A stretch of 31,479 bases of DNA, from IMG/VR virus record IMGVR_UViG_2534681774_000029; one strand, given 5' to 3'. Made by a program: the position numbers and the translations under genes. Under the pieces are notes generated by a model. That model saw only the letters and a list, made by a program, of their open reading frames with translations. It had not been told where the DNA came from and searched no databases. Below are positions 6,680-7,147 of the stretch, one piece after another. Source of the DNA: a virus. Lineage: Duplodnaviria > Heunggongvirae > Uroviricota > Caudoviricetes. The stretch's first letter is position 1, and each line of letters begins with the position of its first letter.

Positions 6680-7147
6680 TGCTGCTCCTCATCATATCGA
6701 CCCTGCAAGGTCGGTTGGTTTCTCCACAAAACAGAGAAGAACACCTGCGGTGGCAGCCGCCCGGATGGATTGGGTTATGAGCCCGTCGTCCGGTGATGCT
6801 CTTCTCTGTTTTGCAAAAAAGGACGGTACCAGCCGGAAGCAAGGGTACAAACTGGTACCGCCAGGACTACACACAGCATAAAGTTGTGGTGCCGGGTGCC
6901 TCCCGGTGCCTGGCGAAGGTTGCACACCAGGCGGGTGGGTATCCACAGAAGGTCGACTGTCAGCCTCAACCTTAACCCGCGTGCGCTGAGCCGCATTCAC
7001 CACAACGCTAAGGATTCTCTCTGGTTGAAAATACTTAGCTGTTATGTGCCTGCTTTTAGCCACATCAGGCGAGGTGGACCTGGTTATTCCCCAACAACAA
7101 GGATTCGGTTAATCTGGATATCCCCAACAACAATAAGAGTATTCAAT
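6680..7147. promoter_or_regulatory. GC-rich, hairpin-dense non-coding region (candidate structured regulatory RNA or leader) between the early-left operon and the orphan gene
   Basis: Contains a 17-bp imperfect inverted repeat (CAAAACAGAGAAGAACA at 6717-6733 and TGCTCTTCTCTGTTTTG at 6787-6803) enclosing two GC hairpins, further hairpins (CCGGGTGCCTCCCGG, GCCTGG..CCAGGC), a terminator-like hairpin at 6803-6850, and a direct repeat TCCCCAACAACAA at 7088-7100 and 7121-7133. Overlapping ORFs look like GC-driven artefacts. Confidence 0.4.
6803..6850 (-). terminator. Candidate leftward intrinsic terminator upstream of yfdP
   Basis: 9-bp stem CGGTACCAG (6814-6822) / CTGGTACCG (6842-6850); on the minus strand it is followed by TCCTTTTTT (complement of the A-run at 6805-6810). 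Confidence 0.4.

Follow-up and report, generated by a model that had tools for sequence, protein, structure and literature searches.

Short RNAs are made from the leaders of several phage operons, among them the 6S RNA of lambda pR'-tR', IsrK of Gifsy-1, and DicF of the Qin dicB operon; stable RNAs also come from phage tRNA clusters, an example being the species 1 and 2 RNAs of T4. The region described here, positions 6680–7147 of a 31,479-nt stretch of viral DNA (IMG/VR record IMGVR_UViG_2534681774_000029; the whole stretch is called the window), appears to lie in such a leader, that of the early-left promoter pL of a lambdoid prophage integrated beside tRNA-Arg. The described RNAs closest to it are STnc100 and PasD, small RNAs associated with Hfq that are carried by prophages of Salmonella and of enterohemorrhagic and enteropathogenic Escherichia coli. 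EDL933 has 11 STnc100 copies, one of which was confirmed on a northern blot (PMC5331693), and one copy is located 75 nt downstream of stx2B (PMC12370729). Convergent pairs of small RNAs (sRNAs) that crosslink to Hfq were found at the position downstream of stx2B in prophages of enterohemorrhagic Escherichia coli (EHEC) (PMC4104026). PasD of enteropathogenic E. coli is Hfq-dependent and forms RIL-seq chimeras (PMC8550237), and it is deemed homologous to STnc100 (bioRxiv 10.64898/2026.05.13.724894). In the literature we found no function established for STnc100 relatives or PasD, and nothing on copies in early-left operons. A second point of comparison is the antitermination RNA of HK022, whose putL forms the 5' end of the pL RNA (PMC9378689).

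The minus strand of the region contains a 131-nt multi-branch core, followed by a G/U-rich linker and an intrinsic terminator. As judged by sequence and predicted fold, this core is a sister branch of STnc100 that lies outside the curated family. Its location at the pL leader is a novel position for STnc100 and PasD kin, and the modular hairpin system around it was not found described. When the window was scanned with the Rfam models, no family attained its gathering score. The STnc100 model (RF02076) matched over its entire length (model positions 1–206) at 6813–7036 on the minus strand, with a score of 40.3 bits (E = 6.8e-7), which is below the gathering cut-off of 47 bits. It was the only meaningful match below threshold, those to DicF, ftsZ-DE, and miRNA models having E values of 0.3 or worse. 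Thus the Rfam and Infernal scan proposed in an earlier reading of this DNA, made from the letters alone (the sequence-only reading), did return a family, but not at the level of curated membership. Canonical STnc100 copies, which have CCCCC in helix P2, score 52–132 bits in Rfam; like the window core, the other copies of its type in loci L027, L250, L363, and L448 gave no STnc100 match at the gathering level.

Relatives of the core were gathered from annotated phages and E. coli genomes, and by three exact-pattern scans of viral contigs, each anchored in a different part of the fold and each yielding at least 120 loci. A 15-mer scan of genome contigs (596 Gb) gave mostly chance matches, the usable ones being from Kosakonia, E. 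coli, and Serratia. The architecture common to the relatives consists of a closing helix, P1, of 8–11 bp; a joiner of two A residues; P2, a 6-bp hairpin with a U·G closing pair, one bulged nucleotide, and a pentaloop of the form U-N-N-G-C; an inner domain of 30–150 nt that is freely swapped among relatives; and P3, a 5-bp hairpin with the loop AGGCA, whose 3' end joins the 3' strand of P1 without a spacer. A minimal natural core of the window type, in L448, is only 79 nt long (an 11-bp P1, AAU, P2, a linker of 15 nt, and P3), which shows that the scaffold can do without a large inner domain.

Comparison with STnc100 showed which parts of this scaffold are held constant and which are exchanged. 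P3 (CCGGGAGGCACCCGG) matches the STnc100 consensus letter for letter, as does its junction with P1, and the window P1 (GUUGUGGUG-AAU...CACCACAAC) has the same inner pairs, UGGUG/CACCA, and the same AAU joiner. The bulged P2, the UNNGC loop, the 3' intrinsic terminator, the location in a prophage, and the same orientation as a long phage operon are also shared. The outer part of P1 was replaced by compensatory changes, GUUGUGGUG/CACCACAAC in the window corresponding to GCAUGGUG/CACCAUGC in canonical STnc100, and so was P2, which is UGCGGC-UCAGC-GC-A-CGCG in the window and UCCCCC-UGUGC-GG-A-GGGG in canonical copies; between GCGGC/GC.CGC and CCCCC/GG.GGG, three pairs are changed on both sides. 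The inner domain is unrelated. The two also differ in location: published copies of STnc100 and PasD belong to the late region, where they follow stx2 and lie close to Q (PMC12370729, PMC4104026, bioRxiv 10.64898/2026.05.13.724894), whereas the window core is in the early-left leader by the immunity region and is flanked by hairpins of another kind (H hairpins, below).

The helices covary. Across 90 frames anchored on P3, and in an alignment of 17 window-type sequences (A1), P1 changed in a compensatory manner, other covarying pairs being GCAAUGCAGUG/CACUGCAUUGC and CUGCUGCUGUG/CACAGCAGC; in the copy of a Klebsiella phage, P3 is GGUGG-AGGCA-CCACC. In A1, 97.6% of the cells were paired and six pairs showed double changes. 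At most 1 of 500 shuffled alignments matched any of the measures, and sliding the 3' partners reduced pairing to 25–55%, so that the covariation called for by the sequence-only reading is present and exceeds both controls. A covariance model built from A1 (R1) gave a score of 110.6 bits for the window copy and of 9 bits for the runner-up in the 31.5-kb window; this search, run at full sensitivity, found no second copy of the core in the pR or late operons of the window. Coordinates of the core and of the other features are given in Table 1.

Table 1. Features in and around the 6680–7147 region, in order of increasing position in the window
Feature	Position	Strand	Description
yfdP	6315–6677	minus	followed by yfdQ, yfdR, and more genes toward int, all minus
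Hairpin and yfdP translation start	6675–6715	minus	small hairpin 6715–6696; Shine-Dalgarno GAGGAG 6690–6685; start codon 6677–6675
H-B	6727–6813	minus	87 nt; stem of 20+ bp closed by CAAAAC/GUUUUG; branched tip; inverted repeat of the sequence-only reading
CGGGCUCAUAACCC in H-B tip	6772–6785	minus	14-nt identity to the anticodon stem-loop of E. coli initiator tRNA (metY)
Intrinsic terminator	6813–6862	minus	GC-rich stem of 11–13 bp; 19-nt loop; U6; −20.5 kcal/mol
G/U-rich linker UUUAUGCUGUGUGUAGUCCU	6863–6882	minus	20 nt; candidate seed; unpaired in the minimum-energy fold
STnc100-like core	6879–7009	minus	131 nt, multi-branch; RF02076 match, alignment A1, model R1
P3	6906–6892	minus	CCGGG-AGGCA-CCCGG; abuts P1 3' strand, 0 nt between
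Variable domain	6977–6907	minus	
P2	6995–6978	minus	pentaloop UCAGC; bulged A
AA joiner	6997–6996	minus	
P1	7006–6998/6891–6883	minus	
H-A	7001–7047	minus	AGCUAAG-U-AUUUUC..GAGAAU-C-CUUAGC, closed by CAUAAC/GUUGUG; 3' flank common with core P1
Small hairpin	7048–7070	minus	GCCUG-N13-CAGGC, then ACAUAAC
Proximal arm of 26-nt inverted repeat	7111–7136	minus	partner 7665–7690; 85% complementary; RNA reads UUGUUGUUGGGGAUAUCCAGAUU
Orphan gene	7148–7663	plus	171 aa; matches no family
rrn-type boxA AGCUCUUUAACAA	7689–7701	minus	right after hairpin 7721–7702; outside 6680–7147
Putative pL	7809–7837	minus	sigma-70-type, TTGTCA-17-TAGATT; directly after cI; outside 6680–7147
LexA-like CI repressor	7891–8517	minus	Peptidase_S24 and helix-turn-helix domains
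cro-like gene	8615 onward	plus	

Folding of the whole region gave −185.9 kcal/mol for the minus strand (z = −5.05, with none of 100 shuffled sequences as good) and −168.2 kcal/mol for the plus strand (z = −2.58). Together with the conservation and covariation, this bears out the claim that a structured RNA is encoded on the early-left strand. The claim of a GC-rich non-coding stretch likewise held: the GC content was 0.54–0.58 across 6550–6999, with a peak of 0.58, as compared to 0.40–0.50 on both flanks.

The open reading frames (ORFs) called here overlap on both strands, and had been regarded in the sequence-only reading as artifacts. One of them, a 123-amino-acid ORF covering 6692–7063 on the minus strand, might be a small YmfH-like protein gene (103–123 amino acids). 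The overlapping ORFs had no family match in Pfam or NCBIfam. The stop-free frame differs among homologues, being frame 2 in the window and e14, frame 0 in SfV, and frame 1 in ST64B, and it is not kept even in the SfV copy, which is 97% identical; in phiES15 and Kp4866-6, the homologous stretch has no stop-free frame of more than 60 codons. PGAP labels the equivalent stretch "frameshifted", and substitutions preserve base pairs rather than codons. Of 5426 complete E. coli genomes, 3090 match the stretch, and many of these carry "hypothetical" or "frameshifted" coding sequence (CDS) calls there. In favor of a protein are the annotation of the E. coli K-12 e14 copy as ymfH (L001 4002–4313), which lies over the core, terminator, and H-B, and a screen in which a ymfH clone was scored as a trigger of the retron-Sen2 toxin RcaT (bioRxiv 10.1101/2020.06.22.160242). 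Because of its coordinates, that clone would express most of the e14 RNA, and its effect, if real, could stem from the RNA and not from a protein. We conclude that the region 6680–7147 is non-coding and that the called ORFs are artifacts; a protein gene is extremely improbable. Nor was an N-like gene destroyed by mutation recognized beneath the region, in an analysis that included no search aimed at arginine-rich N proteins.

Another explanation for the repeats is that they function in DNA, the CACAAC/GTTGTG flanks and long palindromes serving as recombination boundaries or protein-binding sites through which mosaic modules are exchanged, with no role in RNA. The break-points of mosaicism among relatives do fall at module borders (~6709, 6863, 7077, and 7131), and variable cargo, including whole genes, lies between conserved inverted flanks. 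However, the minus-strand helices contain frequent G·U pairs, which are A·C mismatches on the opposite strand; the minus strand folds better by 18 kcal/mol; compensatory changes preserve the helices; and relatives have been detected as RNAs in the literature. A purely DNA-level function is therefore very unlikely.

Downstream of P1 come the linker and then the terminator, which aligns with the terminator of the STnc100 model. The terminator stem (6862–6852/6832–6822) and U-run (6820–6815) correspond to the leftward terminator-like hairpin of the sequence-only reading; it had been overlooked by a pattern scanner because its loop is 19 nt long. The core of the linker, UGCUGUGUGUAGUC, is retained in phage copies from E. 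coli, Salmonella, Klebsiella, and Cronobacter, in which the adjacent terminator stems vary. A constant linker next to a varying terminator is how an sRNA seed followed by its terminator typically appears. In e14, SfV, ST64B, and phiES15, the core, linker, and terminator likewise occupy the early-left strand, with the repressor side on one flank and the first early-left gene on the other, and an Stx2c phage has an element of this kind at the same place; the e14 copy is upstream of xisE-intE.

A candidate promoter on this strand is found directly after cI, and we infer it to be pL. An operator-like motif, AACTAAGTTAAGTTAGAT, overlaps it and is also present at PR; the form common to the putative pL (7809–7837) and PR (about 8560–8600) is AACTAAGTT(NN)GTTAGAT. 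Another candidate operator, TGGATATCCA, was rejected when it was found to be absent at PR, the actual operator-like motif being AACTAAGTT..GTTAGAT. Loci L008 and L033 have the same arrangement of pL and operator-like motif with other hexamers; promoter and operator differ from those of the window in both loci, but L033 has the same first ~110 nt of leader. Because the promoter sits at 7837–7809, the 6680–7147 region would be the distal part of an untranslated pL leader of ~1.1 kb. A region on this strand is not the leader of the orphan gene, as had been suggested, because that gene is on the opposite strand.

The leader contains an rrn-type boxA, ~100 nt downstream of pL and ~550 nt outside the region; a nut-like signal of the kind considered in the sequence-only reading does exist, but elsewhere than in 6680–7147. 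Over 12 nt its core, GCUCUUUAACAA, is an exact match (12/12) to the core of the rrn boxA, UGCUCUUUAACAA. It follows a hairpin, as in rrn operons, and another hairpin (7691–7654) comes after it. Among the loci with a listed core position, 11 others, viral or genomic, have the same boxA 12-mer ~800–940 nt ahead of the core and on its strand. Neither an N-like gene nor a boxB–N pair was recognized, although no search aimed at arginine-rich N proteins was made. These observations on boxA are suggestive of antitermination by Nus factors, and an rrn-like, Nus-dependent anti-Rho device would make sense for an untranslated leader of 1.1 kb.

We propose, tentatively and with somewhat less than even confidence, that transcripts from pL terminate behind the core to yield an Hfq-type sRNA, and that the same terminator attenuates the early-left genes. 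When CI repression of pL is lifted, transcription would proceed through the boxA leader, antisense across the orphan gene, and into the region. Most polymerases would halt at ~6815, releasing a stable Hfq-type sRNA that is protected by the scaffold and whose linker could pair in trans with candidate targets. The polymerases that read through would proceed into H-B and yfdP...int, and because these alone would reach yfdP...int, the terminator would also attenuate and insulate the early-left genes. H-B forms a near-perfect 20-bp duplex just before the yfdP ribosome-binding site; it probably serves as a hairpin for processing of the RNase III type or for insulation, and would part the sRNA from the mRNA. 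Of the functions offered by the sequence-only reading, that of a small RNA fits best, given the sub-threshold kinship to STnc100, the conserved linker, the terminator, and the published relatives bound by Hfq. The layout is analogous to that of the 6S, IsrK, and DicF RNAs, in which a short RNA comes from the front of an operon by early termination or processing and read-through gives mRNA. The analogy is one of layout only; there is no kinship in sequence or structure, and the matches to DicF and isrK were weak and insignificant.

Several results weigh against this proposal, in addition to the sub-threshold STnc100 score. The window has no promoter immediately upstream of the core, and most relatives also lack one there, having an H hairpin instead; it is present only in Stx2c-type phages. 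With no adjacent promoter, an sRNA would therefore need to be cut from a transcript of ~1 kb. A search of the window for targets with complementarity to the linker returned nothing but its own template. A role as a mimic or sponge of GcvB, which was considered on the basis of the GUUGUG/CACAAC motifs and of AgvB (PMC4104026), failed its control and was dropped as unsupported: pairing of the linker with the dppA leader (−16.8 kcal/mol) was no better than that of 57% of random windows, and pairing of GcvB R1 with the element (−27.1 kcal/mol) ranked only in the top 3.5% of a background set that itself contained copies of the element. In some close relatives (L363, L405, L250, and L095), no terminator separates the core from the ribosome-binding site and ORF that directly follow it; these cores are 5'-untranslated-region elements, not stand-alone sRNAs. 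Finally, the loops of the scaffold are conserved beyond the need of a mere stabilizing domain.

This last observation, that the AA joiner, the UNNGC loop, and the AGGCA loop are constant while the helices covary and the inner domain is swapped, suggests that the constant unpaired nucleotides contact a conserved macromolecular partner. That partner could be RNA polymerase, if the core is a put-like cis-acting antiterminator that binds the polymerase transcribing it and allows passage of the terminator at 6815 and of later ones, so that yfdP...xis/int would be expressed without N. Like HK022, phages of this kind are lambdoid, have no recognizable N gene, carry a structured RNA in the early-left leader, and have a strong terminator, to be passed, between pL and all of the early-left genes.

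A second type of scaffold adds to this comparison. Type-2 cores, found in L016, L020, L008, L280, L323, L276, and ~40 more loci, consist of P1, a P2 of GCGCA-GGCUGA-UGCGC, a variable cargo, a P3 of GCCGG-AGAUCAGCA-CCGGC, and P1'. Their P1 covaries strongly (for example, GUGUGAUCUGG/CCAGAUCACAC), and they gave no STnc100 match at the Rfam gathering level. In an Stx2c phage, a type-2 core takes the place of the window-type core, and the terminator, H-B, and yfdP are unchanged. The pL of this phage (TTGACA-18-TACATT), which has the same hexamers and spacing as its PR, ends ~10 nt before P1; given a start a few nucleotides past the −10 hexamer, the core would appear to begin the pL transcript, at its extreme 5' end like putL in HK022 (PMC9378689).

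Other comparisons do not fit a put element. We compared the HK022 pL leader and the published description of put with the window core and found no similarity in sequence or architecture: put consists of two stems in ~70 nt and has copies at both pL and pR, whereas the window core is a 131-nt multi-branch structure in single copy. It is ~800 nt from pL, in a leader that already has an rrn-type boxA. The relatives of the window core, unlike put, form arrays and accumulate as sRNAs: canonical relatives are in tandem arrays of 3–6 copies in other phage contigs, and where EHEC prophages carry them in the late region, under Q control, they build up as sRNAs bound to Hfq (PMC4104026). The put element suggested by the sequence-only reading thus did not find support at the level of likeness to HK022, and we regard put-like antitermination by the core as unlikely, although it is a reading to be taken seriously.

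The core is flanked by hairpins that we call H modules, each with a long stem closed by (C)ACAAC/GUUGUG and a variable tip; H-A and H-B both belong to this group. H-B includes the inverted repeat noted in the sequence-only reading. The repeat exists, but its arms are 24 nt long, 83% complementary, and located at 6727–6750/6790–6813, ~10 nt to the right of the 17-bp repeat given there (6717–6733/6787–6803); the two inner GC hairpins, CCGGA..UCCGG and GCGG..CCGC, are enclosed by the H-B stem on the minus strand as described. H-B folds with −55.3 kcal/mol on the minus strand (z = −4.6), and none of 200 shuffled sequences was as good. It also occurs alone beside other cores, for example in Stx2c phages. 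When 237 distinct sequences upstream of GUUGUGG were folded without constraint, 162 formed an H-type hairpin, with many pair types at each stem position. Of the 27 pairs in an alignment of nine H modules (A2), 11 showed compensatory changes. The small hairpin ahead of H-A (7048–7070) looks in alignment like what would be left of a lost upstream core at its 3' end, P3 plus CACAAC, and the same combination of a hairpin plus ACACAAC was found ahead of H modules in many loci.

H-A and the core share sequence. The segment GUUGUGGUG can pair either with the upstream CAC-AUAAC, which extends H-A, or with the downstream CACCACAAC, which closes P1, and the predicted energies of the two conformers (6998–7047 vs 6883–6891) are the same (−105.3 vs −104.7 kcal/mol). 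Because each GUUGUG in the arrays has both partners, a register-switch design may be possible.

Some H tips resemble parts of tRNAs. The identity of the H-B tip to the initiator tRNA takes in three G-C pairs and the CAU anticodon, with a chance expectation of 2e-4. H tips enclosed by covarying stems repeatedly carry the motif (G/A)ACGGG-NN-CAU-AW-CCC-AAUC, and other tips bear T-arm-like GGUUCGAAUCC. These likenesses extend to the core, which has a cloverleaf-like topology, and they raise the possibility that core and tips mimic tRNA parts, are co-processed with phage tRNAs, and titrate a factor that recognizes tRNA, such as a processing enzyme, MetRS, IF3/30S, or the anticodon nuclease of a defense or toxin system. 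P1 would correspond to the acceptor, followed by the 2-nt joiner, a D-like P2, the variable arm, and a T-like P3 of 5 bp that is stacked on P1 with 0 nt between them. In type-2 cores the loops of P2 (GCUGA) and P3 (UCAGC) are complementary to each other.

The surroundings of the relatives are also relevant to such a decoy. Of 60 surveyed loci, 13 have tRNA genes on the same strand, which are no more than ~1 kb from the core in the loci with both positions listed, and canonical STnc100 is often found in tandem arrays of 3–6 copies beside tRNA genes, an arrangement that would suit a titrating RNA. In L034 (12860–13950) and L054 (795–1500), on the minus strand in both, a strong promoter, TTGACA-17-TAGATT, precedes an array of ~1 kb in the order H, H, type-2 core, H, core, tRNA-Arg(UCU), tRNA-Met(CAU); the L034 array adjoins head-tail genes, not an early-left leader. 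Against a decoy, neither ARAGORN nor the Rfam tRNA model called a tRNA at the modules, in the window or in the homologous loci; the core has no CCA end and no canonical T-loop, its P3 loop being 5 nt and not 7; and the likeness could reflect ancestry without present function. We consider a tRNA-derived decoy decidedly unlikely.

Tandem arrays of 3–6 canonical STnc100 copies were observed at L352 2265–3380, L411 4349–5513 and 8357–8555, and L360 342–1038. The period is ~253 nt in L360, L372, and L411. There are tRNA genes alongside the L352 and L360 arrays, and an isrI match within the L411 array. In other loci, hairpin loops bearing AGGAC come after many type-2 cores.

A broader proposal, which we hold to be rather improbable at present, is that these elements make up a phage-wide modular RNA system in which tRNA-like scaffolds of two types, one of them absent from Rfam, are combined with CACAAC/GUUGUG hairpins with swappable tips and act via a host partner. 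The tips may be T-arm mimics, the initiator anticodon-arm mimic, or whole moron genes, and the arrays may be placed in operon leaders and tRNA clusters of temperate phages of enterobacteria. Action may be through the host partner and not through base-pairing, either by titration of a tRNA enzyme or defense nuclease or by reprogramming of the transcribing RNA polymerase.

Two other features of the leader were observed upstream of the region. The opposite-strand orphan gene (7148–7663) is flanked by the 26-nt inverted repeats, which on the pL RNA read AUCCACAACAG... and ...UUGUUGUUGGGGAUA and carry the same CACAAC/GUUGUGG theme as the H hairpins; the bracketed gene looks like a moron slot within an RNA stem. 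In L033, the same inverted-repeat bracket encloses two other ORFs. The first 100 nt of the pL leader (~7705–7786, minus) contain three A(N)GGA motifs, GCAGGACG, CCAGGAUGA, and ACAGGACG, the middle one of which is presumably near the CsrA SELEX consensus.

These results replace a phantom gene, annotated as ymfH in the K-12 e14 element and as hypothetical or frameshifted CDSs elsewhere, with a conserved RNA. They place STnc100 and PasD, as a single branch, in a far larger family defined by its structure, of which the window branch lies directly behind pL. They also bear on how lambdoid phages without N pass through their early-left leader, since one transcript would carry three candidates: the rrn-type boxA, the core with its terminator, and the processing hairpins. 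If the mimic of the initiator anticodon arm is functional, it would represent a new route by which a prophage may reach translation initiation or tRNA-targeting immunity.

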